From assembly GCA_963612485.1 (NCBI GenBank), contig CAVDWI010000001.1, positions 1 to 39,079 of the forward strand: 39,079 bases of DNA, written 5' to 3'. Under the pieces are notes generated by a model that worked only from the letters and a program-made list of their open reading frames with translations, did not search any database and had not been told where the DNA came from. Source of the stretch: Barnesiella intestinihominis. GTDB lineage: Bacteria; Verrucomicrobiota; Kiritimatiellia; RFP12; UBA1067. Position 1 is the stretch's first letter. Each line of letters opens with the position of its first letter. This document shows, piece after piece, positions 1,677 through 28,100 of the stretch. Made by a program: the position numbers and the translations under genes.

Positions 1677-1728
1677 GAAAAAGGGGACTGTCCTTGCAAA
1701 AAGCTCATAAAAGCAAGGACGAGTCCCC
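1677..1728 (-). terminator. Rho-independent terminator ending the secretin gene and the large minus-strand block
   Basis: The minus-strand transcript reads GGGGACUCGUCCUUGC, a 15-nt loop, GCAAGGACAGUCCCC, then UUUUUC. This is a 15-bp stem with one bulge. It lies 22 nt after the TAA stop at 1750..1752. Confidence 0.8.
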
Positions 1729-1749
1729 GGGGGAGAGATTGCTCTAAAA

Positions 1750-4953: not shown

Positions 4954-4986
4954 ATCGAAACCTATTCCTTAGATTTTCAGTTGTGT

Positions 4987-5015
4987 ATTATATCCTAATT
5001 CCGCTCACGGTTCAA
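4987..5015 (-). promoter_or_regulatory. Candidate internal sigma70-like promoter in front of the secretin gene (TTGAAC, 17-nt spacer, TATAAT)
   Basis: On the minus strand the -35 is TTGAAC (5010..5015) and the -10 is a perfect TATAAT (4987..4992), separated by 17 nt. The site lies in the AT-rich 51-nt gap and is followed by an AAGGAA ribosome-binding site before the ATG at 4953. Confidence 0.4.
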
Positions 5016-10446: not shown

Positions 10447-10458
10447 TCGTTCTGTTGC

Positions 10459-11496
10459 CTATTTCGTCGTGCTCTGGAGGAGGGTGACGCAAATCGTGCC
10501 GACGATGTCCTCGGCATAGCACCCCCGCGAGAGGTCGTTCATCGCCTTGGCGAGACCCTGCAGGTTCGGGCCGATTGCCGTCGCACCGCCGAGACGCTGG
10601 GCGATCTTGTAGCCGATATTGCCCGCCTGGAGGTCGGGGAAGATGAAGACGTTCGCATTGCCCTGAATCGTGCCGTCGGGATTCTTCAGGCGACCGACGG
10701 CGGGGGCGATCGCCGCGTCGAACTGCAGTTCGCCGTCCATCGGAATGCCCTTCTCGGCGAAGCGTGGCTTCGCGAGTTCGACGGCCTTCTGAACCTTCTC
10801 GACGAGTTCGCCCGCCGCGCTCCCCTTCGTCGAGAAACTCAAGTAGGCGACGCGAGGTTCGCATCCCGTCAGTTCGCGGTAGGTCTGCGCCGTGGCAAGA
10901 CCGATATCCACGAGCTGCTCCGCCGTCGGATTGGGTATGACGGCGCAGTCGCCGAACGCCAGCACGCTGTCGCCCGACGGCGTGGGGTTCTTGAGGTCGA
11001 GCAGGAAGCAGGAACTCGCCGTCTTCACGCCCTTCTGCGTCCCCAGCGTGTGGAACGCCGCCCGCAGCATGTCGCCCGTCGAGGCGATCGAACCCGCGAC
11101 GAGTCCGTTGACCCGCCCGAGTTTCACCATCATGCCGCCGAAGTAGATGCGTTTCGTGCGCAGCGTCTTCTGCGCCCCCGCGAGGTCGATGATCTTCTGC
11201 TTCTCGGCGGGCTTGCGCGACTCCTTCGCGTTCCACGCGGCGAGATACGCTGCCTCGAGTTCCGCATCGCCCTTCGTGTAGTCAATCGTCTGGATGGCGC
11301 GGTCGGCGAGGTGCAGACCCGCCTTTTCCTCCGCAGCGGCGATTTCCTCCGCCGTGCCGAGCACGACGGGTGTGCAGATGTGCCTGTCCACGCAGGCACA
11401 GGCCGCCGTGATGACGCGGGGATCCATGCCCTCCGGCAGAACGACCGTGCCGTTCAACTTCGACGCCCGCTTGATGATGTCCGCTATTGCACTCAC
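10459..11496 (-). CDS. pta: Phosphate acetyltransferase (short form)
   Basis: The motifs are VVLPEGMDPRVI, VAGSIASTGDMLRAA and the C-terminal IGPNLQGLAKAMNDLSRGC..DIV. The start codon is GTG, with an AAGGAG ribosome-binding site about 10 nt upstream. Confidence 0.9.
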   Translation of the reverse strand: MSAIADIIKRASKLNGTVVLPEGMDPRVITAACACVDRHICTPVVLGTAEEIAAAEEKAGLHLADRAIQTIDYTKGDAELEAAYLAAWNAKESRKPAEKQKIIDLAGAQKTLRTKRIYFGGMMVKLGRVNGLVAGSIASTGDMLRAAFHTLGTQKGVKTASSCFLLDLKNPTPSGDSVLAFGDCAVIPNPTAEQLVDIGLATAQTYRELTGCEPRVAYLSFSTKGSAAGELVEKVQKAVELAKPRFAEKGIPMDGELQFDAAIAPAVGRLKNPDGTIQGNANVFIFPDLQAGNIGYKIAQRLGGATAIGPNLQGLAKAMNDLSRGCYAEDIVGTICVTLLQSTTK

Positions 11497-11514
11497 TTCT
11501 GAGAATCTCCTTTG

Positions 11515-12660
11515 TTACTTCGAGAGCACGCGCACCGTGTCGCGCGCAATCATCAGTTCCTCGTTCGTCGGCAGAACGACGACGGGAATCTTCGAGTCCT
11601 TCGTCGAGAGGACGGCGGTCACGCCGTGCGACTTGGCATTCGCCCGACGATCCAACTTGATGCCGAGAGCCCCGAGGCGGCTGATGATCCGCGCCCGCGC
11701 CTCGGACGAGTTCTCGCCGATGCCGCCCGTCATGATAATCGCGTCCGCGCCGCCCACGACCGTGTTGTACGCCCCGATGTAGAGGGCGGTGCGGTAGGCC
11801 AGCATCTCAAGCGCGAGCTCCGCCGCACGGTCGCCCTTCGCCGCCCGTGCGCAGATGTCGCGGCAGTCGCCGCCCGCCACGCCCGAAACGGCCTGAAGAC
11901 CGGACTTCTTGTTGAGAATCGTATCCATCTCGGCGGGGGAAAGTTTTTCCGCCTCCATGATGGCGAGCACCGCCGCCGCGTCGATGTCGCCGCAGCGCGT
12001 CCCCATCACAAGCCCCGCGAGCGGCGTCAGCCCCATCGTCGTATCCACGACTTCGCCGTTCTTGATCGCCGCAAGCGACGATCCGTTGCCCAGGTGACAG
12101 GTGACGAGGTTCACCTTCGCGAGCGGCTTGCCGAGATAGTCCGCCGCCGCACGGGTGACGAACTTGTGCGACGTGCCGTGGAAGCCGTATTTGCGAATCC
12201 CGTACTTCTTGTAATACTTCGGGTCGATTGCGTAGAGCGCCGCGCAGTCGGGCATCGTCTGGTGAAAGGCCGTGTCGAAGACCCCGACGTTCGGAACTCC
12301 CTTGAAGATCTTCTCGCAGGCCTCGACGCCGCCGAGGTTCGCCGGCATGTGCAGGGGACCGAACTTGACGAGCTTGCGGGTCTTCGCCAGGTTCGCCTTG
12401 TTCAGCAGAACCGAGTCCTTGAAGACCTCCGCCCCGTGCAGAATCCGATGGCCGATCGCATCGATGTCGGTCGGGTTGCCGAGGTCGGCAACGACCTTCG
12501 CGAGCGCCTCGGCGTGGTTGGCGGGGCCGCCCGCGCCGATTCGCTCGACGAGCCCCTTGGCGAGCCGCGTCTCAGTCTTCATGTCGAAGAGCTGATACTT
12601 GAGCGAACTCGAACCCGAGTTGACAACAAGAACTTTCCTGATTTCCTTCTTCATTTTCAT
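11515..12660 (-). CDS. ackA: Acetate kinase
   Basis: The motifs are VLVVNSGSSSLKYQLFD, GHRILHG, FDTAFHQTMP, FHGTSH, CHLGNGSSLAAIKNG..VDTTMG and GTRCGDID. The ATG at 12658..12660 overlaps the TGA of the 4,010-aa ORF as ATGA. An alternative start lies two codons downstream. Confidence 0.92.
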   Translation of the reverse strand: MKMKKEIRKVLVVNSGSSSLKYQLFDMKTETRLAKGLVERIGAGGPANHAEALAKVVADLGNPTDIDAIGHRILHGAEVFKDSVLLNKANLAKTRKLVKFGPLHMPANLGGVEACEKIFKGVPNVGVFDTAFHQTMPDCAALYAIDPKYYKKYGIRKYGFHGTSHKFVTRAAADYLGKPLAKVNLVTCHLGNGSSLAAIKNGEVVDTTMGLTPLAGLVMGTRCGDIDAAAVLAIMEAEKLSPAEMDTILNKKSGLQAVSGVAGGDCRDICARAAKGDRAAELALEMLAYRTALYIGAYNTVVGGADAIIMTGGIGENSSEARARIISRLGALGIKLDRRANAKSHGVTAVLSTKDSKIPVVVLPTNEELMIARDTVRVLSK

Positions 12661-15600
12661 TCTTCCACAATCGCAATCCGGTAGAATCCGCTGGTGAGGT
12701 CGATGTTCGGGTCGAGCGCAACCTCGACGACGGACTGCCCGTTGCCGACCTCCACGCCCGTCACCGTCGTCTTCAGCGTCCAGTCGGCGGCGGCAAGGGT
12801 CGCCTTTTCATAGACATTCACCGAGACGGTCTTGGACGAAACCGAGATGCCGTAGACCTGGCTCACCATCTGGCCAGCGACGGAAGGCTGGACGTCCGCC
12901 GCGACCGTCAGCACGATGCGTTTCGCCTCGGTATCCAGCGTCATCGACGTGATCTTCAGCGAATTCTCGTCAATCGTCGCCTGGCTGCGAACCGCCGCGA
13001 CCAGCGTCTCCGCCGTCAGGCTGCCGCCCGAGAGGCCGAGCAGGATCTTCGCATACGAACCGTTCTGGAAGATTGTATACGGAATGCCGGAGAGACCGGC
13101 GGAAAGCCCGCCGCGATCGGTGATGAACGCCTCGATGTCGATGAGCACCTTCTCGTCGCCCGTGACGTCCGCCTGAATCTTGTCCTTCACGGACTCCCAC
13201 GAACCCGTCCAGCCCGCCTTGGCGTACTCATACGCATCCGGAATCCAGTCGCCGTCTATGTCGGCGTCCTCGATATAGACGTTCACGACCGGGGCGGTGA
13301 CGTCCGTATCCGTCAGCACGACGGCATCCGCCGCACAACCCCACGATTCCCATGCGCTGTGCTGGAAGTCGCCGTCCGAGTCGATGTAGGCGCGGATGTA
13401 GTAGGTTCCGTTCGCCGGCAGACCCGTCAGGCGCGCGTTGGGCTGGGTGAGCGTCATGTCCGTGATGGACGAGCCGACCACGTTTGTAACGAACGTCTGG
13501 GCGAGCGGTTCGCCCGAGAAGTCCGCCGTCGGGAACGCCTGGACGCGGATGATGCCGTTCGTCTGGCTCAGGTTGTACACGCGGTCGAGCACGCACGTGG
13601 GCCCCGCATATTTCACGAGCACGTCGATGGACGAGTAGCTGTGGTCGTTCATTGCGCGGGCGGAATTGACCGACGCGGCGAAGTTGACCGTCTTCGACCA
13701 GGACGTGCTGCGGAACTTCGCGTTGTACATCGCCACGCGGCACTTGTAGTTGCCACGGCGCGACAGGATCTTGCGCTGCGGCGTCTGGTCGCCGAACGCG
13801 CAGTCTGCCGTCCACTGGTAGTTCCCGTTCCTATCCATCCTCGGCGCACGGCGGACGCCCGAATCGTAGATGACCTCCTTCCCGTCTTCCGACAGGATCT
13901 GCAGCTGGAAGGCGGTGTAGGAGTTGTAGCCGCCCGTCGTCCACGTGAACGTCGGCCGGGCGTTGTAGTAGATGCCCTCGACGCCGCATCCCGTAATCGT
14001 CGGAATCGTGCGCAACTGCGTCGCGTCAAAAGTCCGCGAGACGTTCATGAGGAAGAGGCGGTTCGTTGTCGTCGGGGAAATCGTGCCGTCGCCCAGGACG
14101 ATGCGATACATCACGTTCGTCGGGTCGAGCAGCCAGTTCCCGTTGTCATCGTAGAGGTTGAGCGCCTCACTGTTGTAGACCTCCGCGTTGAAGTGCGACC
14201 AGTCGATGTCGAGTTCGCCGTCCGTCAGGAAGTCGCCCTCGTGCAGGTAGTGCCGCACGTTGAGGTCGAACGTCTTGTCCAGGACAACGCGGTTCTCGAT
14301 GGCGAGGAAGTTGGAGTCGTACTTGTTGAGGCCGTAGCCGTTCACCGCCGTGCGGACGACGCGAATGCGTTCCTTCGACATGCTGGAGTCCAGCACGATT
14401 CCCAGGTCGTTCGTCGTCAGGCCGCTGTTGGCGGGGTTGTACTTCGCACGATCCGAATCGCCCGAGAAAAGGTCGATGCGGGCGAAGACGGGATGCGTCT
14501 TCGTCAGTTCGACGGTGAACCGGGCGCCGTCCCAGCCCACGTCGACGTTATCGACGAAGCCGAACGGCTCACCGGGCGTGTACTCGCCGTCGCCGTCGTT
14601 ATCCACGAACACGATGAACTTGTTCAGACCCTCGCGGACGTAGCCGCGGTGTTCGAGGTCGCCAGCCCCGTTGGCCTCCCACAGGTGGTAGGTGCCCGAA
14701 GCGTCGGGTCCCGCCGCCTCGTCCGACCACGAAATGTAGGCGTAGCTGCCGGCGAGATTGAACTTGTCATACCAGACCGCGCTCAGCGAAGCCGCCCCTT
14801 CAGGGACTTCTTCCGTCGCAAAATAGGCGTCGCCCGTCAGCGTATCGCTCGAGAAGTCGATCGTCATCTCGCCCGTCGTGTAGTTAATCGAGCCGACCTC
14901 GGTTTCCTTTGTCGAACCCAGCGACGTGATGATTGTCGCGTAGAGCATGCCGATGCCGTTGTTGTTGGGATTCCGGTCGCTCACGACAACTTGCCAGGTG
15001 GCGTTCGCGGGCTCCCCGTGATAGGTCAGGTAATCGTAGCCGTTCAGAACCGACACGAGGCGGTAGCCCAAGTCGCGGAAGTAAATCTTCACCGTTCCCG
15101 GTATCACCATGCCGGTGCCAAGCGTGTAGGTCGCCTCTTTCGCCGGATTCATGCCGAGATACCGCGTGTGGGCGGACTTCGAGACGTTCGAACTGACGTT
15201 CGCAACCGTCCAGATTGCATCCGGAACGGTGGTCATGCCGGGATCCGTCTTCTTGCTCCACGCCTTGAACACAATCGGCGCACTGATGACGTCCGATTCG
15301 TTGTAGACGATGGTCGCCTCAATCGTGGGAACCGGATATTCACGGATGTAATACCCGTCGCCCGTGCCGGCGGACCTCGACTTGGTCGGGTTCGTGCCGA
15401 CCTTCGCCTCCGCGAAGTTCGACCAGCCGTCGTTATCCAAGTCCTTCAGCGGATCGTGGACAAACTGGTTCGCATACACGACGCCATTCGCATCGGGTGT
15501 CGCATACTGGCGCTCCCACTGGTCGCTGACTTGGTCGAAGTCGGTGAAAATCTCGCCGAAGTAGAGGTCGCCGACGCGGCGGAAGTAGTCGGGGCACGAA

Positions 15601-18600
15601 CCATCCGTCTTTGCGAGCGTCGGGTTCAGGCGGGCGAACTTGAAGACCTCGCTGATGAGGTATTCCGTGTAATTCGAGAGTCCGTCGCCATCCGCATCGG
15701 CGAACTGGTCTTCCGCGCTTCCGGTGTCGATGCCGTAGATTTCCTCCCACCAGTCGGGGATGCGGTCGCCGTCAACGTCACGCGTGTCGGTGTACTCGGG
15801 GTGGTATTCGCCGTCGGGCAGCATGCCGCGCGCCAGGTCGCGGAGATACGCTTCCCACGCCGTCATGCGAAGGCCATCGTAATCGACCATCGTATCCCAG
15901 GTAATAGTCGACGACGGGTCGGAGACGTAGTTGCCCCTGGCATACGCCGTCCACCAGTCGGGCAGACCGCGGTTGTTCCGGTCGTCGCCCGTCTGCGCCC
16001 AGGCATCCGCCGCGCCCTGGTCATCCCACATGCCGCCCTCGGCGGAGGAAATGCGCTTCGGATACGCGCCGCCCATCGGCAGCAGGTCATCGCCGAGTAC
16101 GTTGCGGTCGCGGAGGGCGAAACGGAAAGCCTCCTTCTGCGTAGCGTTCGTCGAGACGAGATTCCAGCGCGTCGGGGTCGTCTTGATTCCCGTGTTCTCC
16201 TGGTAGTAGAGAACCTGCGTCCAGCGGCTGTAGACTTCAGCCGAGCACGGGAACGTGAAGGACGGATAGCCCGAATCCACCGCCGAAACCGCCCCGGCGT
16301 AGTTGGTGCTCCAGTAGACCGAATCGAGCGTCGTTCCGTCAAGTCGCGGCAGGTGCGAGACGGTATTGTTGATCCACGGCACATACGCGGCATCGTCGTA
16401 GACCGTCGAGCGCACCGCAATATCCGCCCACCACGGGCATTCCCAGTCCTCGGGCCGCACCCAGACGGCCTTCGCGTCTGTAATCGTTCCCTTCGTCGAG
16501 AATCCAGTCGGCGTCGTCATCACGTCGCCCGTCTCGACCGCACCCGGCAGATGGTCGAACGACCAGTGGAACTTCAGTTCCGCCGGGAGCTGACGGACGC
16601 TGCCACTCATGCGCGACCCACCTTCGCACCAGGACTCGTAGACCGCCTGACGGTTCGCGAGAGCCAGCGCGGGCGTGTAGCGCGTACGGTTCTGCACGTC
16701 CGCCGCGATGTCCGCCGCACTCCGTGCGCCGTCCCAGATGCGGACTTCGTCGATGTAGCCCTTGTAGTAGTTACCGTAGTCGTCGAATGTCGGGTTCGCG
16801 AGATCCGGTTGACGCTGGCCGAGGTCGAAGTAGACGGCGAACATGTCGAGCGCCGAAGCGCCGACCAGGTAGGAGATGGACTCATACCTCGTGTAACTGC
16901 CGATCTCGATTGCATTCCGCGAGGCGATGCCGTGTTCAGGAGAGACACTCGTCTCCTTCGACATCCCCGAGTTGCACTCGCCGTTCACGTACAACCTGAG
17001 GGCCTTGCCGTCGTAGGTCGCCGCCACGTGCGTCCAGTTCGTCGTCGCCACGGGACCTTCCGTAATCTCGACGGGCTGCAGCTGGTCCGTTCCGGCGGAG
17101 TCGTATTTCGTATACCACTTGCCGTTCTTGATGCCGATCAGGAAGTTCTTGCGCAGGTACTTCGCGTCGGCGGGACCCGAGGCCGACGTCCAGATGGCGC
17201 GTTCCACCAGCGTCCGCAACTCGTTCGACCCGAGAATCGACCCGTCGGGCTTCGCCCAGCACTCCACCGTGTAGTAGAGGAAGTTCTCGCGGAATTCGGA
17301 GTTCGACTCGGTGACCGGCGTCTCCTCCTCGGTGCAGACGTGGGACTGGAGGAAGGACTTGTCCTCGTCACCGCCGAACCACATCGCCTGACGGCGCAGG
17401 GGGTCGTTGGAATCCTGCGGGTCGGAGGCCTTCTTCGTCCGCGCACGGGCTTCCTCGTAGTCGCTCAGGAAGTCGTGGTCGGAATCGTAGCCCTCGTTCT
17501 CCTCGAAACTGAAGAAGTAGTCGCTCTTCACGTTCCAGTTGTTGAGCGTGTAGACGTCGAAGATGCCATTGAAGTAGACCATGGCGTTCTTCGCATCCCA
17601 CCGGAAGCCCGGGAAGGAATCGAAGCGATAGACCTGGCCGTTGTAGGTGAACGTCCCCGTTGCGCTGGGGAATGACGTCGCGCCCGACGGCGGCATGTAG
17701 AAGCGCCGCGTGAAGCTTCCCTCATAGCTCGTATCGGTCATCCACAGCGGGGTCGGGTCGGTGTGGAGATAGTTCGAGGCGGCCTGGATCTGCGGCATGA
17801 TCGCCTCGTCGGCGTTGCGGATGTTGTCGCCGTCGGGGTCGGCCGCCGCAAGGCCCGTCAGCCACGGGAACGCCTCGAAGTCCCACGCCGCGCCGCCGCC
17901 GACCGTCTCGTCGCGGCTCGGCTTGAACCGCGCCGGCCGATGGAGATCGGCCTCGTCGTCGCTCGGATACCAGTAGTTCTCGCACGCGCTCCACGCGACA
18001 TTCTTCACATCCTGCGAGTCGTCATACGCCTCAAACACAATGTCGCGGTTGCTGCCCCTGCCACGCGACTTCTGAAGACCCAACAGCGGGTTCATACCGT
18101 GGAAAATCTCGTAGTAATCGTCCATGCCGTCGCCGTCCGTATCCGGCATGCGCGGATCGCACGTAATGTATTTCGCCGGATACAGCCCCTCGAGATTGGC
18201 GAATGCGTGGGGCGACGTCCAGTCGGTCGCCGTCGCCGCCTTGTAGGTAAAGCGGTTGAACTGCTTGTCGCCCACCGTATACTTGCCCGCCGGCGGCGTC
18301 TTCAGGTCGTGGTAGACGCCGTCCCTGAACATGTAGTACTTGCCGTAGCCCGTGTGATCCCACGCATTCGTGCAGAGGGAGAAGTAGGAGCCGCCGTCGA
18401 ACGTCCCCGCCACGAGGTGCGGGTTGAACAGCCCCTCGGTGTCCTCATCGTCATCGTCCACCGTGTTCTGCTCGTCCGCGAGCACACGATACCAGAACTT
18501 ACCCCAGTCCTCCGAGGTCTCGTCGGCCGGGATCGCCTCGAAGTCAAACGCGTGGCTCGTCCAGCGGGAAACCGTGTCGTCGTAGCGCCAGCACCGCATC

Positions 18601-21600
18601 GCGCCGACCATGTATTCCTGCCAGTTGAGGAGGCCGTCGTTGTCGTAGTCGAGCATCGCGTCGTTCACCGTGCCGTCCATGCCGTCGTTGTTCCACCCGG
18701 CGCTGGCGGTCTCGGTCGTGTTCGTCGAGTCGCTGGAGGTCGTGCTGTCCGAATGCGTACCCGCGAACTCGAGTTCCCACGGGTCGGGCAGGCCGTCGCC
18801 GTCGGTATCCCACGAAAGCGGGTTCAGGCCGCCGCCGGCAACGCCCGAATCCCCGTAGATGAAGACCTCCGCGTATTCGGCGCCGTCATTGATGCCGTCG
18901 CCGTCACTATCCTCGTTCCACGGGTCGGTCGCCCACAGCTTGTTGCGCCACTTCACCTGCTTCTCGTTGAGTTCGGGAATCGTGCAGTAGTCGCTCGCGG
19001 GGTAGAGAGCGGTCGAAAGGTAGCCCGCGAACTCCTCCGCGAACGAAAGCCCATCGTTGTCGGGATCGGGGAAACCCACTGCACTCACGACCGGACAGGC
19101 CGCCGCGAGCGTGGAGATGGTGCGGCCTTCGGACGCGAGGCCCTTGGGCGCACTATCTGGCGCGTAGAACGTGTAGAGTTCCCAGCCGTCGGGAATGTCG
19201 TGCCCGAAGGAGTCCGCCTTGAGCGGGTTCGTGGTGAACTTCTGCCAGATTGTCTCCATCGGCACCGCCGTCGTCGGCACGAGATCCTCATCCGCAATCA
19301 GCCCCTGATGGTAGAGGAAGGTCATCAGCATGTATTCGTCGTAGTTGGTGAACGGCTTCGTGTTCACCGCCGCCCACGAATCGGGCAGTTTCCAGTGGGT
19401 CGCCGTCAGCGGATTGTAGCCCAGCTTCTGGTAGACCTGGAAGTGGATGAACGTGAGGTTCGTCGTCGCGCTGAGCGCAACCGTCCGGTTGAGGAGATCC
19501 TTGAGGTCGTCCGAGCCGCACGCGACGCCGGCGATGCGCGTCCCCGCGCCGTCATAGTCCCACGCCTGGTAGATGTTGCCCGACCCGAGTTCCGTCGGGT
19601 TCGTGTAGTCGAGTTCCAGTCCGTTCAGGTCAACGATTGCCGATGCCTCGCCCGGATAGTAGAAGGTCGTCTTGTCGACCGTCCCCGTCGCCCACGACGA
19701 ATACGCATTGATCGACGCGGTCACCGTCGCCGTCTTCGCCTCGTCATCCTTCTTGTATTCGACGATGCCATCGGTGACGAGATAGCGCGTTCCGTCCGTG
19801 CCGTTCACGAAGTAGCAGACCTTCGGGTCTGCGCCGGTCGCGTCCGCCGAGAAGAGCGACCACGCGCCGTCGCTGAACCAGTATTCCGAAACCTCGTCCG
19901 AGTCTTCCTCGGCGAAACCGAGCATCGGCAGCTGCACGGTGTAGAACGCCATCGCGTCGCCATCCGGGTTCGCAAGGCCGTCCGCCTCGGAAGTCGTCCC
20001 GCCCGACACGACCTTCAGGGGGTCTGTCATGGAAATCGTGAGTTCATAGCCGTCCGGCAGGCCGTCGCCATCCGTGTCGAAATCGAACGGATTCGTGCCG
20101 AGCGCGAGTTCGACGAGATCCGTAAGGCCGTCGTTATCCGTGTCGGTCGTGGGCCCGGGGCTTGCCGCGCCCGACAGGTCGTGACGCGGGTCGTAGAGCG
20201 AAGCGATTTCCTCCGACGTGATGATTTCGGGGTGCATCGGGTCCTTCGGGTTGTACCGCCGCCCCGTCAGCTTCGTGTATTCGCCGTTCGCGCCGGTGTA
20301 GCCGACATGCGCACGGTACCAGATGTAGTATTCGTAGCCGTCCGGGAAACCGTCCTTGTCCGTATCGGGGAGCGTGGGGTCGGTCGGCCGTTCGGGCGAC
20401 CACGCGAGGGCATCCGAACCGCCCGCCCAGATCGTGGTATCGTCCGGGGTGCGCTCGATCTTCGCGCAGTAGTTCGTGAACGCCCACCATTCGATGGCCG
20501 AGAGGGTCGAGTCGCTGTCCGTCGCCGGGTCGGTGAACTTGACGACCGAGGTGAAGTTCCGGTCAAGGCCGAGCTGCTGCGCCGCGTCGTTCAGGGCGGG
20601 GGAGGCCTCGCCGCCGTTCGCATACCAGCCGCGAATCTCGAAACGCGCCTCGAACGGCGTACCCGCCGTCACCCACGTGTTGGAGAGACCGGGGATGAAC
20701 GAGGCGATCGACGACGTATCCGTATTCGGGAAGTAGTCCGCATCATTGTTCCAGTCCGAGATGTCCTCAAGGTCGTCACCCGACTTCGTCAGATTCGCAT
20801 CAAAGATCCCGAAGCCGGGGTAGGCCGTCACGATGATGTCCGGGATGCCGTCGGCGTTGATGTCGCCGCAGTTGTCGCTCGTGAGCCATTCCCTTGAGAA
20901 GACGGCTTCCCAGTATTGCGTGTCGTAGGTCGATTTATCCGCATCGTAGGGCTGCAGGGGAATTGCGAACGTATTCGCCTTCGCCGGACCGATCATGATG
21001 TCTGTCTCAAGGTCGAGACCATCGGACGTCGCCGAGTTGTTGCAGACCCAGGCGTAGAAGAAACTGTCGTAGCCTTTCGCGCCGCGTGAGTCATTGAGAT
21101 AGGAGTAGGCCGCGTCACCCGCCGTGCGCGGATACTGTCCGAGCGAACTGATCTGGTCGTTCACCGGATTCGCCACCTGATAGCCCGTCGCAATCACGGG
21201 GAAAGAGGAGTCCGTGACCGCGAGGGAGAAGGTCGAGACCCAGCTTGCGACCTTCTGCGGATTGACCGATTCGCCATCCACGCGACCCGCGCCAAGACCC
21301 TTGGCCTTGTTGCCGTAGCGGACGGAATGCTGGTTCGAGGAACTGCGGGACAAAGCCGGGTCGTGCGCCGAGACAACGACTGTCTTCGTCTCCATCACGT
21401 TGTAGTAAAACGTGCTGACCGTAGAGTTCTCGTCCTTATCCGTGAAGGTGACCTTGACCGTCTTCAGACCGGGCGAGGTGAAGGTGACGGGCGTCGCGAA
21501 CGTGTACTGCGTCGTATTCGTCACGGTCGCGGAGTTGATTTCATCGCCGTCCACTTCGAGCGTCACCGTGATGCCTTCGGCGAGGTCGGCCGCCACGTCG

Positions 21601-24600
21601 TTGCTCACCTTGTATTTCACGGTGTAGTCGGTGTAGACCTTGGCGGTCGTGTTCGTCGTGCCGTCCGACGGGGTCGTCACGCCCTCCGGGGCGACATTCA
21701 CGACCTTCAGCGACGGCGCAAGAACCGATGCCGCCTCGTAGTATTCGTTCCATGGCTTCCCGTAGCCGGAATCGTCCGTCGTGATGACGAACGCCTCGAG
21801 GTCGATGCCCGCCGACGAATCAGAGGTGCCGTCCATTTCAATCGCCGTCAGCGCCACCGAAGTCGTGCCAACCGGGAACCTGACGATGTAGCAGTCCTCA
21901 TTTTCGGTGTCTTCCCAGACGCTGTTCGTGCGCGTCCTGAACTTCACGTAGCCACCGTCATCGGCCTTCGGGACCTTGACGCGAACCTGAATGTCGGCCG
22001 TCGCCGCCTGCGAAAGCCCGACCACAATGCCGTGGCCGGTCTTATCGTTTTCGTACCAGTAGCCCGTATCGTCGGTGTTCTCGTAGGCGAGCGTCACGCG
22101 CGGCGTCTTGGCGACCGGGACGCGGAACGACCAGTTGGCCGTGGAGGGATAGTCCGCCATGTCCTTGTCCTTCAGGAACACCTGCACGAGCGCACCCTCC
22201 GCGCCAACCGTGTCGTTCCTGAACATGTGCGTGACGGTCACGCCATTCGGATTCCCGTTCGTCACGATGGTCGCCGCCGTGCCGTCGTAAATCACCCACT
22301 TCGTCAGGAACGTGCCGTTGCCGTCTGCGTCAACGGCGTTCAAGTCCGCCGCGACATCCGTCGCCGAGAGCTGGAACAGCGTGTTGACGCCCTTCGGGAC
22401 GCTCCGCGCCGTGCCGCCGTTCTCGACGGGCATCCCGCCCGCCGTCACGCCCGTCACGACGGGCTCGATGTTCGTCACGACGACGTAGAGCGTGCCATCC
22501 TCGAAGCCCGCCTGTTTCTTGTATTCCTCCTGCTTGGACGAAAGCTTCACCGTGAACTCGCACGCGCTCGCCGTGCCGTCGATGAACGAGACGTTGGGCT
22601 GGAACGACGCATTGTAGGTGCCCTTCGGAATCGCCACGCCCGTCTTGAACGGCGCAACCGTCAAATTGACCGCGTTCGAACTCGCCGCGTTGAGCGGTTC
22701 GAGGAAGGCGTAGGTCGTTGCGTTCGCCGTGCCACCCTCCAGGGTGAACGTCACGGGCAGGGACGTGCCTTCGGCGACATACCACGGCGACTCGCCCGGC
22801 AGTGTCGCCGTAATCTGCTTCGCCTTGCCGACCTCAAGTTCAAAACTAACGGTTTCGGACGAAGCACTGTTGAACGGTGCGATCGCACGAAGCGAAATCG
22901 TCTTCGTGCCGGCCTGCACGAACGTCTGGTCGAGCGTGAAATAATCATCCTCCTCCGTGATGCCCTCGGAGTCCGTCAGTTCTTCACCGTCGGTCGACGT
23001 CCACTTGAACGTGTATCCGTTGTTCTCATCCATGATGTTCCGGTAGCAGTCGGCGAGCGTGACGCGGAACGTGGTCGGGACGCCGCCGACCGCCGTCGCC
23101 GTGCCGGTCGGATAGCCGGGATCGATGCTGAGGATTGTCGGATTCACTCTGTTTACGAACAGGATGCAACCCGCCGTCGATGCCGAAACCTCGGAATCTA
23201 CAATCGTCATGCCTTCGTTCGTGTAGACCGTGCCGGGCTTGAATACGATGCCCGTTGATGAACTGCCCGTCTTGCCCGTCCAGCCGAGCGAATAGAGATA
23301 GAGCTGAACGGTGCTGTAGCCCGACGGAATCTTGACTTTCGTCGTCCGCCCCGCGTAGGCGTCGCCACCGTCGTTCTCGCTGATGCCGAGAAGCGTCGCG
23401 TCGTAGATGTCCGAGAGGTCGCCGGTATCCGCCAAGGTCGCCCCGATTTCGACCCACACGTCGTGATCGACGGCGGGCGTGAGGTTCACGGTCAGCTGCG
23501 CCACGTGGTCGTAGTAATTGGTCGTCGGGCAGGTGACGGTGGCGCGGTCGTCCTCGCCGTTCAGGCGGAAGGTGACCGTCGGCGAGGGCGCGGCATGCAT
23601 CCGCACCGTCCGCGAAACCGCCGAACTGTCAATCACGTCGCCGACGTCGTTGAAGGCCTGCGACGTTGTGGAACTCATGTAAATCTTGCAAGTCGTGCCT
23701 TCCGGCGCACTTCCGCCGCGCATCCTGAACGACGCGGACGATTCGCCGCTGCCGATCGTGACGGGCAGGACGGTCTTGCCATCGACGGTGATCGTGTTGT
23801 CGCCGACCGGCACGAACACGGTTTCGTCCCCCGACCAGACATAAACCGTCGCGGGACCCGCACCGGTCAGGCGCGGCGTATTGAGCACGGCGGTCGAGAG
23901 ACCGGGATAGACGTCGCGCCACACGTCATTCGCCTCGTCATCGTAGGTCGTGTCGAACTTGACCGTCTGCACGTAGATGCCCTCAGTCGCAAGCGAAGCA
24001 TCCGTGCGCGGCGCGGTGTGCGGGGTTTTAGGATAGTCAACATTGTAATCCAGAAGAGCATCCTCATTCACGAACCTCAACACCGCCAGACGCGGCGATG
24101 AACTGTTGTTCGTCAAGTCCCACTCGTTGAAGGTTTCATCCCCCGTGTTGACGTTGACCATCCATACTTCCGACGAACTGCTACCGACCTGACCGTCCTT
24201 GCCGAGCAGTTTCACGGGAAGGCCGAGTTCACCCGCCCCCACGGTGTACTTGAAGTAGAAGTCGGTGTGGTAGCCGAACCTGCCGTTGGAGTCCCTCACC
24301 CGATTGAGGCCGCTCAGTTCGCCGTTCGGGCCTGTCGATGAATAGGTTGCGTAGGCGAGTTTGCCGCCGATGGAGAGGGCGAGCATCGGTCGGTTGACGC
24401 TCTCGACGAGACTCGTCGAACCGGTCGTCAACGATTTGAAATACCACGGGTTGTGCGTTGTGCCATCCTGAACCGTCGTGAGGTAATCCTGGTTCAGCAG
24501 GCGCACGAGGATGTAGAACGACTGCCCCGCGTTCAGGGGAGCTGAATCGTTCGGGTAGGTTGTCGTCGAATCGCTCACCGCGTCGATTGACCGGATGTCG

Positions 24601-24689
24601 CCAACATCCGCCGCCACAGCCGAAATGCCGGCGAACGCCGCCGCCGCGCACGAAAGAACGAACTTTTTCATCATAATCAGGTTCCTCAT
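12657..24689 (-). CDS. Giant secreted protein (4,010 aa) with many thrombospondin-type-3-like Ca-binding repeats, an FG-GAP-like repeat, a LamG/concanavalin-A-like domain and Ig-like beta-sandwich arrays
   Basis: An uninterrupted ORF. The signal peptide is MMKKFVLSCAAAAFAGISAVA|AD, and the more likely start is the ATG at 24674 or 24671, after a GAGGA ribosome-binding site. At least 12 D-x-D-x-D-G-x-x-D-x-x-E repeats are present, including DTDKDGFPDGYEY, DTDNDGLTDLVE, DTDGDGLPDGYEL, DSDGDGINDGAEY, DTDGDGLPDPWELE, DYDNDGLLNWQEY, DTDGDGMDDYYE, DVDGDRIPDWWEE, DADGDGLSNYTEY and DLDNDGWSNFAE. CGDINADGIPDIIV is FG-GAP-like. The LamG region is annotated separately. Confidence 0.9.
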   Translation of the reverse strand: MRNLIMMKKFVLSCAAAAFAGISAVAADVGDIRSIDAVSDSTTTYPNDSAPLNAGQSFYILVRLLNQDYLTTVQDGTTHNPWYFKSLTTGSTSLVESVNRPMLALSIGGKLAYATYSSTGPNGELSGLNRVRDSNGRFGYHTDFYFKYTVGAGELGLPVKLLGKDGQVGSSSSEVWMVNVNTGDETFNEWDLTNNSSSPRLAVLRFVNEDALLDYNVDYPKTPHTAPRTDASLATEGIYVQTVKFDTTYDDEANDVWRDVYPGLSTAVLNTPRLTGAGPATVYVWSGDETVFVPVGDNTITVDGKTVLPVTIGSGESSASFRMRGGSAPEGTTCKIYMSSTTSQAFNDVGDVIDSSAVSRTVRMHAAPSPTVTFRLNGEDDRATVTCPTTNYYDHVAQLTVNLTPAVDHDVWVEIGATLADTGDLSDIYDATLLGISENDGGDAYAGRTTKVKIPSGYSTVQLYLYSLGWTGKTGSSSTGIVFKPGTVYTNEGMTIVDSEVSASTAGCILFVNRVNPTILSIDPGYPTGTATAVGGVPTTFRVTLADCYRNIMDENNGYTFKWTSTDGEELTDSEGITEEDDYFTLDQTFVQAGTKTISLRAIAPFNSASSETVSFELEVGKAKQITATLPGESPWYVAEGTSLPVTFTLEGGTANATTYAFLEPLNAASSNAVNLTVAPFKTGVAIPKGTYNASFQPNVSFIDGTASACEFTVKLSSKQEEYKKQAGFEDGTLYVVVTNIEPVVTGVTAGGMPVENGGTARSVPKGVNTLFQLSATDVAADLNAVDADGNGTFLTKWVIYDGTAATIVTNGNPNGVTVTHMFRNDTVGAEGALVQVFLKDKDMADYPSTANWSFRVPVAKTPRVTLAYENTDDTGYWYENDKTGHGIVVGLSQAATADIQVRVKVPKADDGGYVKFRTRTNSVWEDTENEDCYIVRFPVGTTSVALTAIEMDGTSDSSAGIDLEAFVITTDDSGYGKPWNEYYEAASVLAPSLKVVNVAPEGVTTPSDGTTNTTAKVYTDYTVKYKVSNDVAADLAEGITVTLEVDGDEINSATVTNTTQYTFATPVTFTSPGLKTVKVTFTDKDENSTVSTFYYNVMETKTVVVSAHDPALSRSSSNQHSVRYGNKAKGLGAGRVDGESVNPQKVASWVSTFSLAVTDSSFPVIATGYQVANPVNDQISSLGQYPRTAGDAAYSYLNDSRGAKGYDSFFYAWVCNNSATSDGLDLETDIMIGPAKANTFAIPLQPYDADKSTYDTQYWEAVFSREWLTSDNCGDINADGIPDIIVTAYPGFGIFDANLTKSGDDLEDISDWNNDADYFPNTDTSSIASFIPGLSNTWVTAGTPFEARFEIRGWYANGGEASPALNDAAQQLGLDRNFTSVVKFTDPATDSDSTLSAIEWWAFTNYCAKIERTPDDTTIWAGGSDALAWSPERPTDPTLPDTDKDGFPDGYEYYIWYRAHVGYTGANGEYTKLTGRRYNPKDPMHPEIITSEEIASLYDPRHDLSGAASPGPTTDTDNDGLTDLVELALGTNPFDFDTDGDGLPDGYELTISMTDPLKVVSGGTTSEADGLANPDGDAMAFYTVQLPMLGFAEEDSDEVSEYWFSDGAWSLFSADATGADPKVCYFVNGTDGTRYLVTDGIVEYKKDDEAKTATVTASINAYSSWATGTVDKTTFYYPGEASAIVDLNGLELDYTNPTELGSGNIYQAWDYDGAGTRIAGVACGSDDLKDLLNRTVALSATTNLTFIHFQVYQKLGYNPLTATHWKLPDSWAAVNTKPFTNYDEYMLMTFLYHQGLIADEDLVPTTAVPMETIWQKFTTNPLKADSFGHDIPDGWELYTFYAPDSAPKGLASEGRTISTLAAACPVVSAVGFPDPDNDGLSFAEEFAGYLSTALYPASDYCTIPELNEKQVKWRNKLWATDPWNEDSDGDGINDGAEYAEVFIYGDSGVAGGGLNPLSWDTDGDGLPDPWELEFAGTHSDSTTSSDSTNTTETASAGWNNDGMDGTVNDAMLDYDNDGLLNWQEYMVGAMRCWRYDDTVSRWTSHAFDFEAIPADETSEDWGKFWYRVLADEQNTVDDDDEDTEGLFNPHLVAGTFDGGSYFSLCTNAWDHTGYGKYYMFRDGVYHDLKTPPAGKYTVGDKQFNRFTYKAATATDWTSPHAFANLEGLYPAKYITCDPRMPDTDGDGMDDYYEIFHGMNPLLGLQKSRGRGSNRDIVFEAYDDSQDVKNVAWSACENYWYPSDDEADLHRPARFKPSRDETVGGGAAWDFEAFPWLTGLAAADPDGDNIRNADEAIMPQIQAASNYLHTDPTPLWMTDTSYEGSFTRRFYMPPSGATSFPSATGTFTYNGQVYRFDSFPGFRWDAKNAMVYFNGIFDVYTLNNWNVKSDYFFSFEENEGYDSDHDFLSDYEEARARTKKASDPQDSNDPLRRQAMWFGGDEDKSFLQSHVCTEEETPVTESNSEFRENFLYYTVECWAKPDGSILGSNELRTLVERAIWTSASGPADAKYLRKNFLIGIKNGKWYTKYDSAGTDQLQPVEITEGPVATTNWTHVAATYDGKALRLYVNGECNSGMSKETSVSPEHGIASRNAIEIGSYTRYESISYLVGASALDMFAVYFDLGQRQPDLANPTFDDYGNYYKGYIDEVRIWDGARSAADIAADVQNRTRYTPALALANRQAVYESWCEGGSRMSGSVRQLPAELKFHWSFDHLPGAVETGDVMTTPTGFSTKGTITDAKAVWVRPEDWECPWWADIAVRSTVYDDAAYVPWINNTVSHLPRLDGTTLDSVYWSTNYAGAVSAVDSGYPSFTFPCSAEVYSRWTQVLYYQENTGIKTTPTRWNLVSTNATQKEAFRFALRDRNVLGDDLLPMGGAYPKRISSAEGGMWDDQGAADAWAQTGDDRNNRGLPDWWTAYARGNYVSDPSSTITWDTMVDYDGLRMTAWEAYLRDLARGMLPDGEYHPEYTDTRDVDGDRIPDWWEEIYGIDTGSAEDQFADADGDGLSNYTEYLISEVFKFARLNPTLAKTDGSCPDYFRRVGDLYFGEIFTDFDQVSDQWERQYATPDANGVVYANQFVHDPLKDLDNDGWSNFAEAKVGTNPTKSRSAGTGDGYYIREYPVPTIEATIVYNESDVISAPIVFKAWSKKTDPGMTTVPDAIWTVANVSSNVSKSAHTRYLGMNPAKEATYTLGTGMVIPGTVKIYFRDLGYRLVSVLNGYDYLTYHGEPANATWQVVVSDRNPNNNGIGMLYATIITSLGSTKETEVGSINYTTGEMTIDFSSDTLTGDAYFATEEVPEGAASLSAVWYDKFNLAGSYAYISWSDEAAGPDASGTYHLWEANGAGDLEHRGYVREGLNKFIVFVDNDGDGEYTPGEPFGFVDNVDVGWDGARFTVELTKTHPVFARIDLFSGDSDRAKYNPANSGLTTNDLGIVLDSSMSKERIRVVRTAVNGYGLNKYDSNFLAIENRVVLDKTFDLNVRHYLHEGDFLTDGELDIDWSHFNAEVYNSEALNLYDDNGNWLLDPTNVMYRIVLGDGTISPTTTNRLFLMNVSRTFDATQLRTIPTITGCGVEGIYYNARPTFTWTTGGYNSYTAFQLQILSEDGKEVIYDSGVRRAPRMDRNGNYQWTADCAFGDQTPQRKILSRRGNYKCRVAMYNAKFRSTSWSKTVNFAASVNSARAMNDHSYSSIDVLVKYAGPTCVLDRVYNLSQTNGIIRVQAFPTADFSGEPLAQTFVTNVVGSSITDMTLTQPNARLTGLPANGTYYIRAYIDSDGDFQHSAWESWGCAADAVVLTDTDVTAPVVNVYIEDADIDGDWIPDAYEYAKAGWTGSWESVKDKIQADVTGDEKVLIDIEAFITDRGGLSAGLSGIPYTIFQNGSYAKILLGLSGGSLTAETLVAAVRSQATIDENSLKITSMTLDTEAKRIVLTVAADVQPSVAGQMVSQVYGISVSSKTVSVNVYEKATLAAADWTLKTTVTGVEVGNGQSVVEVALDPNIDLTSGFYRIAIVEE
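16695..17290 (-). other. LamG / concanavalin-A-like lectin domain inside the 4,010-aa protein
   Basis: The segment NFLYYTVECWAKPDG...WTHVAATYDGKALRLYVNGE...GYIDEVRIWDGARSAADI matches the classic Laminin_G_3 pattern (W-x-H-V-A-x-T-Y-D-G...L-Y-V-(D/N)-G...(D/I)-E-V-R-I-W). Confidence 0.75.
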
Positions 24690-24705: not shown

Positions 24706-25122
24706 CTATTTTCCCGTCAGTTGCTTTCTGACAATCGACGTCGATTGCCGGCGGTTGTCCTCAATCGCCGCGTTGACGTCCACAATCCTCGCGTAAAGCG
24801 ACTTCCATTCGGGCTTTTCCTCCAGCGCGGCCTTGATCGCCGCATCGTCCGCCCCCGGTCGCGCCGTCCGTTCGGCGGCGACCATCGCCTCCATCTTCTT
24901 GGCGAGCCGACCGCGCACGGCGGTCAACCGCGTACGCTCCGCCACCTGGTCTTCGAGCCGCGCGCGGAAGGCCGGGTCGGCCTGCGAACCCACCGTCGAC
25001 GCCGCGTTCGTCGGCGCGGACGGCGCGGCGGCGGGCGGCTCGTTTTTCCCGCAATCGCACCCGGCGGCGACGATCAGAATCGCCGCCGCAAGCACCCATT
25101 TTTTCTGAAATGCCCTTTTCAT
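24706..25122 (-). CDS. Small lipoprotein of unknown function lying between the two giant genes
   Basis: MKRAFQKKWVLAAAILIVAAG|C has a lipobox-like AAGC. An AGGAAAG ribosome-binding site precedes the ATG at 25120..25122. The ORF track extends to an upstream ATG at 25149, which lacks a ribosome-binding site. The mature part is Ala/Arg/Glu-rich and probably helical. Confidence 0.7.
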   Translation of the reverse strand: MKRAFQKKWVLAAAILIVAAGCDCGKNEPPAAAPSAPTNAASTVGSQADPAFRARLEDQVAERTRLTAVRGRLAKKMEAMVAAERTARPGADDAAIKAALEEKPEWKSLYARIVDVNAAIEDNRRQSTSIVRKQLTGK

Positions 25123-25186
25123 CTTTCCTGTTTCCTTGAATTGTATCATAAACCGCCGTTCGTGCGCAAGTGTCGTATGTGTTCCC

Positions 25187-28100
25187 TTATTCCGATTCGT
25201 AGGTGTTGTTCGCCTTCAGGACGGGCACGGCGAACGGAATGAGGTCCGTGTCGATGCTCCACCTGAAGAACATGTTCGTCGTGTTCGGGTAGTTGCTCCA
25301 CCCGTAGCCGTAGCCCGGCGAGAGCGTCGAGAACGGGTCGATGATCTCGATGCGGGCGCTGAAGTTCTCGTCGAACGAACCCGGCCCGAACGTGAACTGG
25401 CGGAACGGCAGGTAGCCCTTGTTCTTCGAGCCTTCCTGACCCATGCCGTTCACGTCGAGGGCGGCGCGGACCTTGAACGTCACCGACGTCCACATATTGC
25501 CCGTGAAGGTGTCGCTCTGCTCGTTGTTGACGCCCTGCAGGCGGCAGGGCGCAGAGGCCGCACCGCCCGCGACCGCGTTCGTGATGTAGAGCGTGACGCC
25601 GACGATCCGGTTCGTCAGTTCGTGCGCAACGCCGCCGTATGTCCGCGTGATGACGTGCGTCTCACCCTGGATGTTCGACATGTCGCCGCGCAGCCACCAC
25701 TCGCGCTCGCCCGACTCGGTGACCGGCGGAATGTCGAGCCAATACATCTCCGTGAGGCCGAGATCGACCGTATCCGCCGTTGCACTGAGGCCGCGGTAGT
25801 AGGCGAGGCGAATATCCTCCGCCGTCTTGTCGGGCCAGTTCGCCCGCAGCCAGTTGAGCACGGCGGGCGTGTAGACGTTCTTCTCGTCGAGCCCGAAGTC
25901 GTTCGCGAGGCGGTTGTCGACTCCCTCGCGCGCCTCGACGATGTGGGTCTGACCCGTCGGCGTCACCGTGTGCACATACGTGCCGGGCCTGTTCACGGCG
26001 TTCGTGACGCCGTTCTCGGTGAGCACGGCGAGTTCGTACCACGGCTCGGCGGTGTAGGTGACGTTCGTCGAGATGCCCTGCGGCACGATGACGACCGCCG
26101 AACGGTTCGTCTCTCCGCCGATCGCCTGCGACAGGTGCTCGCCGATGACGTTCAGGTAGACCCAGGCGTTCGTCCCGTTCGGGCGGATGAGCCACCCCTC
26201 GGGAATCGTCTGTCCCTCGTTGATCGTGCCGGGGGTAAAGGTGAGGCCACTCTTCCACGTCCCCTTCGCACCGGGCGCGGGTTCGCCCGTCGCCGTGCCG
26301 CCCGTCACGCCCGCCGAGCCGTAGAGTTCGCCGCTCGTCCGCCGCGCCAGTTCGTCGCCCGCGTAGAACCGCAAGGGCGAAGAATCCGCCGCGTTGAGTT
26401 CGGCAACGAGATTCGTGCCGTCGAATCGGGCGCCAATATCCCAGACAGACCATATGTTCGTCCCCGACAGCACGAACTGATGCTCGATGACGCCGGAGGG
26501 ACGGATCAACTCGAACTGGTAGGGCATACTGTAACTCAGGCTGCCCTCATCCTGAGCGTTCTCGAAGAGATTGGTCGGCCACGTGCCGAGCGAGACGTCG
26601 CCCGCCGCGAGATGCGTCCAGTTGGTGACGCCGCCCGCGTCACGCGACTTCGGGCTTTGCAGAACGACGAACTCGTAGCCGCTCACCGCCTTCGTCGTCA
26701 CGGTTGTCGCCGGCACGGTGACGCCGAAGCGGGCGAGCGTCTTCTCGCCGTTCTGGTTGTTCCTCACGCGGACGCGCCAGCCGTTCATGTCCGCCCCCGA
26801 CGGGACGCAGATCTCGATGAACTGGTTCGTCTCGCACCGCACGCCATCGGTCTCACTCGCCCTGCCGTCGTTCCAGTTCACCTCGTTGATCCAGGCGCGA
26901 CCGGGGCTGACCGAGTCGAGGATCGTATACGCCGAATACCTGCTGAAGTCCTCCGAATCGTAGCCGCCCGTACCCGTGCCGTTCTTGTCGATCGGGTAGT
27001 ACCAGGTCGGCTGCGTCCAGCTCGACATCAGCGACTCGTATTCGCGGCCGCCGCGGTCGTAGTAGGTGACCTTCAGCATGAACTGCACGAACACCCCCGC
27101 CTTCACGGCGGGCGGCACAAGCTCGGCCGGCGTCGTGCCGACGCTGCGGAAGATGAGGTTCGTCGCGTCGCCGACCTGCGTGAGCTCGATATCCGTCACC
27201 GCCGACGCGAGATCCTTCCAGTTGTCGTAGCCCCACGGCGTATCGCCCGAATAGTAGGAGAGCGAAACCTTCAGGCCTCGCGAAAGATCGACTTCGTCCG
27301 CCAGCTGCTGCAACGTGAGCTGCGCCTGAACGCCCCAGCTCTCGCCCGCGAGCGGCTGTTCGTTCGCGCTCAGGATGTCCGCCACCGGGTCGGTGGACAT
27401 CAGGTTGTTGCGGAACGGCCGCGCATAGACGAACGCGAGGGTCGGCTGAACCTTCTCGCCGACGAAGATCTCGTCGAGAATCACGCGGTCGACCGGTGCC
27501 GCCGTCGGCGCGACTTTCTCATCGAGCGACGCCCCCGTTATCTCGAACTTCACCGCGTAGTACGATTCGCTCCCCGCCGTCCACGAGAAGTCCGAGAAGA
27601 CGGGACTCGTCACCGCGTTCGTGAAGATCGGCACCCACTTGCCGTAGAGCGGGTCGGTCGAGCCGTAGCCGATGACCTGGCCGCCGCCGGTCGTCTGCGC
27701 CGAATCCTCGTAGAGACGCGCACGGTAGGTCACGCTGCCGATGCCGACGCGCCCCGCGACGTTCGTCGAGAAGGTCGGCGAATACACCGCCGGATAGCCG
27801 CTCACGACCCGCGTCATGTCGTCGTCCGTCTCGAGGTCTTCCGGCCACACGCCGTTGTTGAGACCGCAGACGAGACCGTAGCCCTCGCCGCCCGTCTGCG
27901 TCATGTCGGCGAGATACATCCGATGCTCGAAGTCGAGCTCGTCGCCGACCGTCCGCATGTTCCAGCCGCGCCAGCTACGTTCCGAAATGCCCGGCTCGTC
28001 CGTCACCGTGATGCCGGTGATGGTGATGCGCCCGTAGTCGAGATTGGGCGTCGAGTTCGTCGCCGCCGCAAGCGCCGCCGTGACGACGTTCGTCGGCACG

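Follow-up and report, generated by a model that had tools for sequence, protein, structure and literature searches.

A conserved family of giant, acidic exported proteins with dispersed thrombospondin-type calcium loops in Kiritimatiellia

A contig of 39,079 nucleotides, deposited under the name Barnesiella intestinihominis and assigned by GTDB to the Kiritimatiellia (assembly GCA_963612485.1, contig CAVDWI010000001.1; its full length is called the window here), encodes on its minus strand a protein of 4,010 residues, to which we refer as the giant. Judged from its sequence and from those of its relatives, it belongs to an uncharacterised but conserved family of very acidic, Sec-exported proteins of 3.5 to 9 thousand residues that is restricted to the Kiritimatiellia. 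We hold with moderate confidence that the giant is an envelope-tethered, calcium-dependent, glycan-binding adhesin-like protein, that is, a long calcium-stiffened arm and no enzyme. The reading frame, its domains, the conserved motifs, the partner gene and the taxonomic range are shown below, whereas dependence on calcium, a position at the surface, binding of glycans and a tether are properties that we infer. The family has a core without a counterpart among solved folds, a lipoprotein as its fixed partner and a tail that is shared with other secreted proteins. The Kiritimatiellia that live in gut and rumen degrade polysaccharides and have not been cultured, and to our knowledge their cell surface is almost entirely unexplored; a literature search on giant proteins of Kiritimatiellae found nothing relevant. 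As the gene alone accounts for about 0.6% of the assembled sequence and almost no genome of the order lacks it, the giant is likely central to how these bacteria meet their substrates or hosts.

The giant is encoded by one open reading frame without interruption (12657..24689, minus strand), and its only hydrophobic stretch lies at the N-terminus (MMKKFVLSCAAAAFAGISAVA, followed by AD), which agrees with the sequence-only reading of this DNA, in which a single uninterrupted 12-kb frame with a Sec signal peptide had been described. An otherwise identical database copy is five residues shorter at the N-terminus (4,005 residues) and the family consensus opens with MKK..., so that the true start is probably M6, the sixth codon, at position 24674. 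Residues 1-26 (24612..24689) were assigned by eye, from sequence inspection and the family consensus, and fit a Sec-type signal peptide with cleavage after AVA. A lipoprotein signal on the giant itself was rejected, since the hydrophobic stretch ahead of Cys14 is not long enough and contains lysines. The mature protein has a mass of 436 kDa and a pI of 4.35. A scan of the sequence found no HExxH, LPxTG or PEP motif and no transmembrane segment, and no sorting domain was found with Pfam or NCBIfam, in keeping with the earlier view that neither an enzymatic motif nor a known C-terminal sorting signal is present.

The source metagenome-assembled genome (MAG) is fragmented (210 contigs, 81% complete) and the window is one whole contig of it, so an artefact of assembly or annotation, such as collapsed repeats or fused genes, has to be considered. 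This explanation is almost certainly wrong, because the gene contains neither tandem repeats nor long direct DNA repeats, and because collinear full-length orthologues of 3,986 to 4,028 residues and 64-87% identity occur in many independent assemblies, as do hundreds of more distant homologues.

A search with a profile of the core returned 2,677 representative clusters (50% identity) at E<=1e-30, which is a lower bound for the family. Among the best 150 of these matches, the core usually begins at residue ~1,200 to 1,400 of the homologue, and shorter matches, which are probably truncated, begin earlier. More than 272 homologues, with lengths of 3.6 to 6.6 thousand residues, came from a word-indexed search; where a source is named, which is rarely the case, it is a MAG of Kiritimatiellae. 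In the GTDB species genomes 397 stretches encode a relative, nearly all of them in MAGs from human, ruminant, chicken and other guts. For the distribution, 301 genomes were sampled evenly from the Verrucomicrobiota, and 39 of them contain the family: 12 of the 13 that belong to the window's family, 19 of the 21 of its order and 8 others of its class. Outside the class it was found in none of the sampled genomes, and the window's own genome, at 81% completeness, contains no paralogue. Far larger homologues also exist, with open frames of 9,264 (L013:9884-37676), 8,801 and 7,972 residues (loci L013, L064 and L078), and in some large homologues the equivalence stops at about residue 3,820 of the giant, where other C-terminal extensions take over.

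The calcium dependence that we propose is suggested by a set of dispersed loops. The giant contains 13 DxDxDG motifs, compared with a chance mean of 0.25 and a maximum of 3 in 2,000 shuffles. Six copies have the strict form DxDxDGxxDxxE; relaxed forms of the motif give 13 to 16 sites between residues 1276 and 3094 (window ~15408..20864), with additional sites at residues 3363 and 3808. The Pfam family TSP3_bac (PF18884) matches in four separate tiles and reaches 53.9 bits (E 1.6e-14) at a gathering cut-off of 25 bits, which by sequence criteria places the giant in this family, and every aspartate of the calcium loops is invariant over 35 to 52 homologues at identities of 28-45%. The sequence-only reading had counted at least a dozen DxDxDGxxDxxE motifs over ~15380..20900 and had given DADIDGDWIPDAYEY as an example near the C-terminus. 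The range agrees with ours, and the motif scan recovered the example; a failure of the motifs against the TSP3 hidden Markov model, which had been named as a finding that would speak against the proposal, did not occur.

The claim that many of these motifs are followed by a G-x-N/D-P linker stands only in part, as the linker immediately follows 3 or 4 of the 13 DxDxDG motifs. Of the two examples that had been given, LGTNPFDFD is indeed found in the giant, at residue 1530, whereas YGLNPDD belongs to the Amuc_1099-like protein of a MUL2-like gene cluster in the same window; this protein likewise possesses TSP3_bac repeats (E 6.4e-10). An FG-GAP-like repeat had also been proposed, which could not be upheld. 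The single FG-GAP match, at residue ~1275, scores 16.9 bits against a cut-off of 22.1, and in the AlphaFold model residues 1275-1290 are coil, with no blade-like strands and no propeller. An integrin-alpha-type beta-propeller was therefore rejected, and the loop GDINADGIPD (residues ~1275-1292; 20814..20867) is best read, as far as the model can tell, as one more calcium loop.

The 13-16 dispersed TSP3-type loops define a core at residues ~1250-3100 (15390..20942), where conservation within the family is highest; a second peak of conservation is found at residues 3350-3850. The AlphaFold model of residues 1241-2440 (pLDDT 71.6, pTM 0.73) consists mainly of coil and short helices, and a variable inserted beta-domain is located at residues ~1579-1748 (19446..19955). 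A Foldseek search of the core model against the PDB gave no match (best E 0.56). The core is thus of interest as a calcium-laced fold of ~1,850 residues that is confidently predicted and has no PDB match. Within this region, residues 2473-2619 (16833..17273) form a LamG, or concanavalin-A-like lectin, domain, with a Laminin_G_3 (PF13385) match at E 3.5e-15 that scores 56.9 bits when the entire protein is searched and 65.8 bits when only the tile is, at a cut-off of 27.6 bits. Sequence criteria thus indicate membership in this family, and the domain lies inside the interval 16695..17290 in which the earlier reading had placed it. Searches of the PDB by sequence and profile (the whole protein, and profiles of residues 1241-2440 and 2811-4010) returned only a match of this domain to the LamG domain of pappalysin-2.

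Both flanks of the core seem to be built from repeated modules. In the N-terminal third (residues 27-1240; 20970..24611), which profile cross-hits resolve into repeated beta-rich modules, PKD-like modules at residues 525-628, 738-861 and 995-1100 match each other with E-values of 2e-5 to 6e-10 in profiles made from family sub-alignments. A second related pair is formed by the units at residues 370-520 and 862-988, as the profile of residues 370-520 matches residues 870-968 (E 1.4e-7). In the giant itself, Pfam gives a weak PKD match, and a homologue has significant PKD matches in the same region. Successive Ig-like modules had been predicted here: the repeated modules are supported by the cross-hits and by the PKD matches of the homologue, and the beta-sandwich fold is putative.

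The AlphaFold model of the C-terminal part (residues 2811-4010; pLDDT 79.2, pTM 0.76) shows at least five beta-sandwich domains of the MG/FN3/Ig-like type at residues ~3105-3810 (13260..15377), followed by a helical segment (residues 3818-3902) and an alpha/beta C-terminal tail domain (together 12660..13238). Foldseek relates the C-terminal third to complement C3/C5, alpha-2-macroglobulin, Bap, FN3/Ig arrays and MpIBP, with E-values of 1e-8 to 1e-5; TM-scores are low, and the likeness of the model appears to reflect the domain type only. Membership in the alpha-2-macroglobulin/complement C3 family was rejected on the basis of TM-scores of 0.05 to 0.10 and the lack of an A2M Pfam match. The giant has 30 cysteines, none of which occurs in the CGEQ context of a thioester.

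The only constant partner of the giant, which the earlier reading had missed, is a coiled-coil lipoprotein of 147 residues with the lipobox LIVAAGC. Its gene (24706..25149, minus strand) is located directly upstream of the giant gene, between it and a second giant. In an iterated profile search, 53 of 62 loci had a homologue of this lipoprotein immediately ahead of the giant, among them that of G197, a genome of the same family in which the giant is not linked to the MUL2-like cluster. The lipoprotein matches no Pfam or NCBIfam family.

All giants end with the sequence G-F-[YF]-[KR]-[VIL]-x-[VIL], at most 10 residues from the C-terminus; in the window it reads SGFYRIAIVEE. This conserved tail, which was likewise overlooked before, is common to other secreted proteins: the same ending occurs in the neighboring C10 peptidases, in Flg_new proteins and in an S8 subtilase near the MUL2 locus of G197, as well as in the 540-residue Flg_new protein of the window (tail at 37328-37560, minus strand) and in two more signal-peptide proteins of its genome. 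In the non-giant proteins, a W/Y-Y-x-L...L-x-G strand precedes the ending. A profile made from the non-giant tails had 22 of its 25 best domain matches on giants at the extreme C-terminus, and it added a fifth protein of this genome (E 2.6e-4). Neither Pfam nor NCBIfam has a model that covers the tail, with no Pfam match in the last 410 residues and no match to an NCBIfam sorting domain in the last 120 residues at E<=1. The sequence data suggest that the giant, while having no known sorting signal, probably carries an undescribed shared tail domain, and since secreted peptidases possess the tail too, it hints at an undescribed protein-sorting route. Within this genome the ending has the form [G/C]-F-[YF]-[KR]-[IV]; besides the giant (12660-12900, minus strand) and the Flg_new protein, it occurs on three signal-peptide proteins encoded at C16:15548-18148, C34:7713-10835 and C29:1411-5886.

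Ahead of the lipoprotein-giant pair stands a large gene that varies between loci, encoding a Gly_rich_2 giant, a Peptidase_C10 protein of ~1,100 residues or a Flg_new repeat protein (as seen at L025, L035, L038, L041 and L053); secreted proteins seem to be exchanged at this position. In the loci without linkage to MUL2, the downstream neighbor is an M4 metallopeptidase or a GH18 protein. The giant could in principle be a scaffold that gathers tail-bearing secreted enzymes and repeat proteins into a cell-bound complex similar to a cellulosome or mucinolysome, with the calcium loops serving as docking elements. It would fit that the neighbors (Peptidase_C10, Peptidase_M4, GH18, Flg_new and the Gly-rich giant) vary and yet are always secreted, that several of them have the tail of the giant, and that the calcium loops are EF-hand-like, as they are in dockerins. 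However, the giant has no cohesin or dockerin match in Pfam, the calcium loops are found in the supposed scaffold and not in the enzymes, and a tail that is present on scaffold and enzymes alike is better explained by a shared sorting tag than by a docking pair. We therefore think that a complex of this kind is very unlikely.

The adhesin-like role that we prefer could be realized as follows. After Sec export, the invariant TSP3-type loops would hold calcium ions, more than a dozen in all, around which the core of ~1,850 residues would fold. Spacers would be provided by the modules on either side, PKD-like at the N-terminus and MG/FN3-like at the C-terminus, the LamG domain would offer a carbohydrate- or ligand-binding face, and the envelope tether might be provided by the conserved C-terminal tail, by the upstream coiled-coil lipoprotein, or by both. 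In this view the giant would be no enzyme but a long adhesin, or an arm that captures glycans, stiffened by calcium. Such a mechanism is compatible with the earlier suggestion of an adhesin, a fibre or a calcium-rigidified stalk, which suits the architecture of a protein exported by Sec, with PKD-like and MG/FN3-like runs of beta-sandwiches, with invariant loops for calcium and a LamG domain, and without any catalytic motif.

Several observations weigh against this role. The core has no structural match, and what it does can only be deduced from its motifs; the individual E-values for homology of the tails are weak (0.004 to 2); and the giant is single-copy and near-universal in the order, with an invariant core. 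As host-facing adhesins are usually variable, a structural component of the envelope would suit this pattern equally well. A serious rival, although we consider it rather improbable, is hence a structural scaffold that is periplasmic or spans the envelope, is not exposed at the surface and serves the Kiritimatiellia envelope as a calcium-dependent housekeeping component. Apart from the near-universal occurrence, the absence of a second copy in this genome and the invariant core residues, it can be argued for this scaffold that the gene probably forms one transcription unit with kdsD, which functions in lipopolysaccharide synthesis, and with ackA-pta, that its partner is a lipoprotein, and that the Amuc_1099-like protein is anchored in the inner membrane and nevertheless has TSP3_bac repeats, so that such repeats need not be extracellular. 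On the other hand, a mass of 436 kDa, runs of PKD/FN3/MG-like spacers and a LamG domain are typical of extracellular proteins, and the tail is common to secreted peptidases that presumably act outside the cell.

The proposed glycan-binding arm has counterparts among known proteins, all of which it resembles in part. Giant calcium-stabilised fibrillar adhesins (MpIBP, 4p99; Bap, 7c7u; LapA/SiiE type) are, like the giant, very large and acidic and free of enzyme domains; they combine Ig/FN3-like spacers with numerous calcium sites and a ligand-binding domain of the lectin type, and it is to 4p99 and 7c7u that Foldseek ties the C-terminal third. The fibrillar adhesins of type I secretion systems (T1SS) differ in that the giant has a Sec signal peptide and neither a C-terminal T1SS signal nor RTX nonapeptide repeats, and in that its TSP3-type loops are scattered in a large non-repetitive core instead of being placed between identical tandem Ig domains. 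T1SS genes (ABC/MFP/TolC) are absent from the window. As there is also no HemolysinCabind match, an RTX/T1SS adhesin of the LapA, SiiE or MpIBP kind was rejected. Giant surface adhesins are also known as cargo of the type IX secretion system (T9SS), such as SprB of Flavobacterium, and many secreted proteins there have in common a short C-terminal domain with a G-x-Y/F-x-V strand. In the giant, by contrast, the motif is at the very C-terminus, and Por_Secre_tail (PF18962/TIGR04183) has no match at E<=1 in the last 410 residues (Pfam) or the last 120 residues (NCBIfam), a result that concerns the cargo domain only, as the machinery was not searched for; we know of no T9SS in the phylum Verrucomicrobiota. 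The giant would thus work like the calcium-stabilised fibrillar adhesins, yet it lacks what defines them, as RTX repeats, a T1SS signal and the C-terminal domain of T9SS cargo are all missing.

With the thrombospondin signature domain, the giant shares the chemistry of the DxDxDGxxDxxD/E loop and a concanavalin-A-like jelly-roll, and its core is modelled largely as coil around calcium sites. Unlike in thrombospondin, the loops are dispersed at distances of 22 to 570 residues, only two pairs are in tandem, and the repeats are not disulfide-bonded. Neither TSP_3 (PF02412) nor TSP_C (PF05735) matches at E<=1, and there is no Foldseek match, so the resemblance is one of chemistry and not of family membership. 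Partial NCBIfam matches via the TSP3 repeats were obtained with CglD (E 1.7e-13, residues 1815-2016, 49 bits) and MtsD (22 bits), far below the equivalog cut-offs of 400 and 800 bits, respectively. These are envelope proteins that, like the giant, have calcium-binding repeats, and they are tied to surface machines, serving gliding adhesion and cell cohesion in Myxococcus. The giant lacks a VWA domain, is four times larger and has only the repeats in common with them. A PilY1/PilC-type tip adhesin of type IV pili was also considered; PF05567, the C-terminal beta-propeller of PilY1, has no match, and the C-terminal third is modelled as beta-sandwiches with an alpha/beta tail.

Downstream of the giant gene, ackA, pta and kdsD (9457..12660, minus strand) separate it from the pilus-like MUL2 cluster (1750..9438, minus strand), which encodes an Amuc_1102-like protein, a PilM/Amuc_1101-like protein, an Amuc_1100-like protein, the Amuc_1099-like protein with its TSP3 repeats and an Amuc_1098-type secretin. 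The stop codon of the giant overlaps the start codon of ackA by 4 nucleotides (ATGA, 12657-12660), which suggests, from the sequence, that translation of the giant and of acetate kinase is coupled. Elsewhere, the two genes are at least 70 nucleotides apart or a Flg_new gene lies between them (L001, L002). In Akkermansia, the MUL2 or "pili-like" cluster is abundant in the envelope proteome (PMC5332112), and in Akkermansiaceae MUL2 has been proposed to mediate the attachment to and uptake of complex glycans (PMC13174399). The counterparts of Amuc_1098-1102 are the five downstream genes of the window and not the giant, which matches none of these families and is not a described MUL2 component; an Akkermansia-like MUL2 locus contains neither a giant gene nor ackA-pta-kdsD alongside.

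That the giant is delivered by this adjacent machine had been suggested from the sequence, and the synteny on which the suggestion was based is found in most close relatives. Of 62 informative loci, ~55 show the order giant, ackA, pta, kdsD, Amuc_1102, PilM, Amuc_1100, Amuc_1099, secretin, with giants that are just 28-45% identical. It is lost, however, in G197, where the giant is 360 kb away from the cluster, and in the sister family f3, where giant and cluster are on different contigs or 208 kb apart. In the Akkermansia-like genome, a genome from another family of the class and an f3 genome, the cluster has neither ackA-pta-kdsD nor the giant alongside, and an ancestral arrangement of ackA-pta-kdsD with MUL2 was accordingly rejected. 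The window's genome moreover contains five secretins, four besides that of the MUL2 type, and seven matches to ATPases of the type II secretion type. As the synteny could have been inherited within one clade and other secretins are present, delivery by the MUL2-like machine is only a possibility. The four other secretins and the ATPases of the genome are spread over contigs C9, C15, C17, C41, C73, C106 and C121; three ATPase genes stand in tandem on C73, and the ATPase matches on C9 are ~3 kb from a secretin.

In a stronger form of this idea, the PilM/secretin machine would have the giant as its dedicated substrate or as an arm that points outward, exported via or mounted on the Amuc_1098-type secretin or pilus, and both would jointly capture polysaccharide for uptake, a role that has been proposed for MUL2 with mucin in Akkermansia. 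The recurring gene order at such low identity of the giants speaks for it, as do the probable co-transcription that follows from the overlap with ackA, the TSP3 repeats common to the giant and the Amuc_1099-like protein, and the connection of MUL2 with glycan attachment and uptake in Akkermansiaceae (PMC13174399). Against it stand the lost linkage in G197 and f3, the Akkermansia-like locus that lacks both giant and ackA-pta-kdsD, the three housekeeping genes between giant and machine, the four other secretins, and the finding that the MUL2-type PilM occurs in 177 of 201 Verrucomicrobiota genomes, whereas the giant is confined to one class. We regard this arrangement as possible but unlikely; if true, it would give a concrete handle on how a poorly understood pilus-like system engages glycans.

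It is tempting to combine tail, partner and machine into a single proposal. The tail (...W/Y-Y-x-L...G-F-[YF]-[KR]-V-x-V) might be an unrecognised, lineage-specific sorting or anchoring tag on a few Kiritimatiellia exoproteins, namely the giant, C10/S8 peptidases and Flg_new proteins, and giant and lipoprotein might form the tethered glycan-capture arm of a secretin/pilus-based, MUL2-like system for polysaccharide acquisition. This combination is speculative, and we doubt that it applies as a whole.

Upstream of the lipoprotein, the second giant (25187..34015, minus strand) has 2,942 residues and a Gly_rich_2 domain according to Pfam. It is called from its first GTG at 34015 without a signal peptide, and its true start is probably located upstream or non-canonical. 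Still farther upstream lies a prepilin-like gene (34119-35120, minus strand), and beyond it, the only sizeable plus-strand gene of the window (35597-37201, 534 residues) breaks the block of minus-strand genes.

Several contigs with a Kiritimatiellia locus have been deposited under unrelated names, such as Faecalibacterium sp. CAG:74, Gemmiger sp., Alistipes onderdonkii and Anaerovoracaceae, and also Clostridiales bacterium CCNA10, Lachnospira hominis, Muribaculaceae and even a Methanomethylophilaceae archaeon (loci L003, L004, L006, L016, L029, L034, L040 and L014/L063). These bins are probably mislabelled or contaminated.

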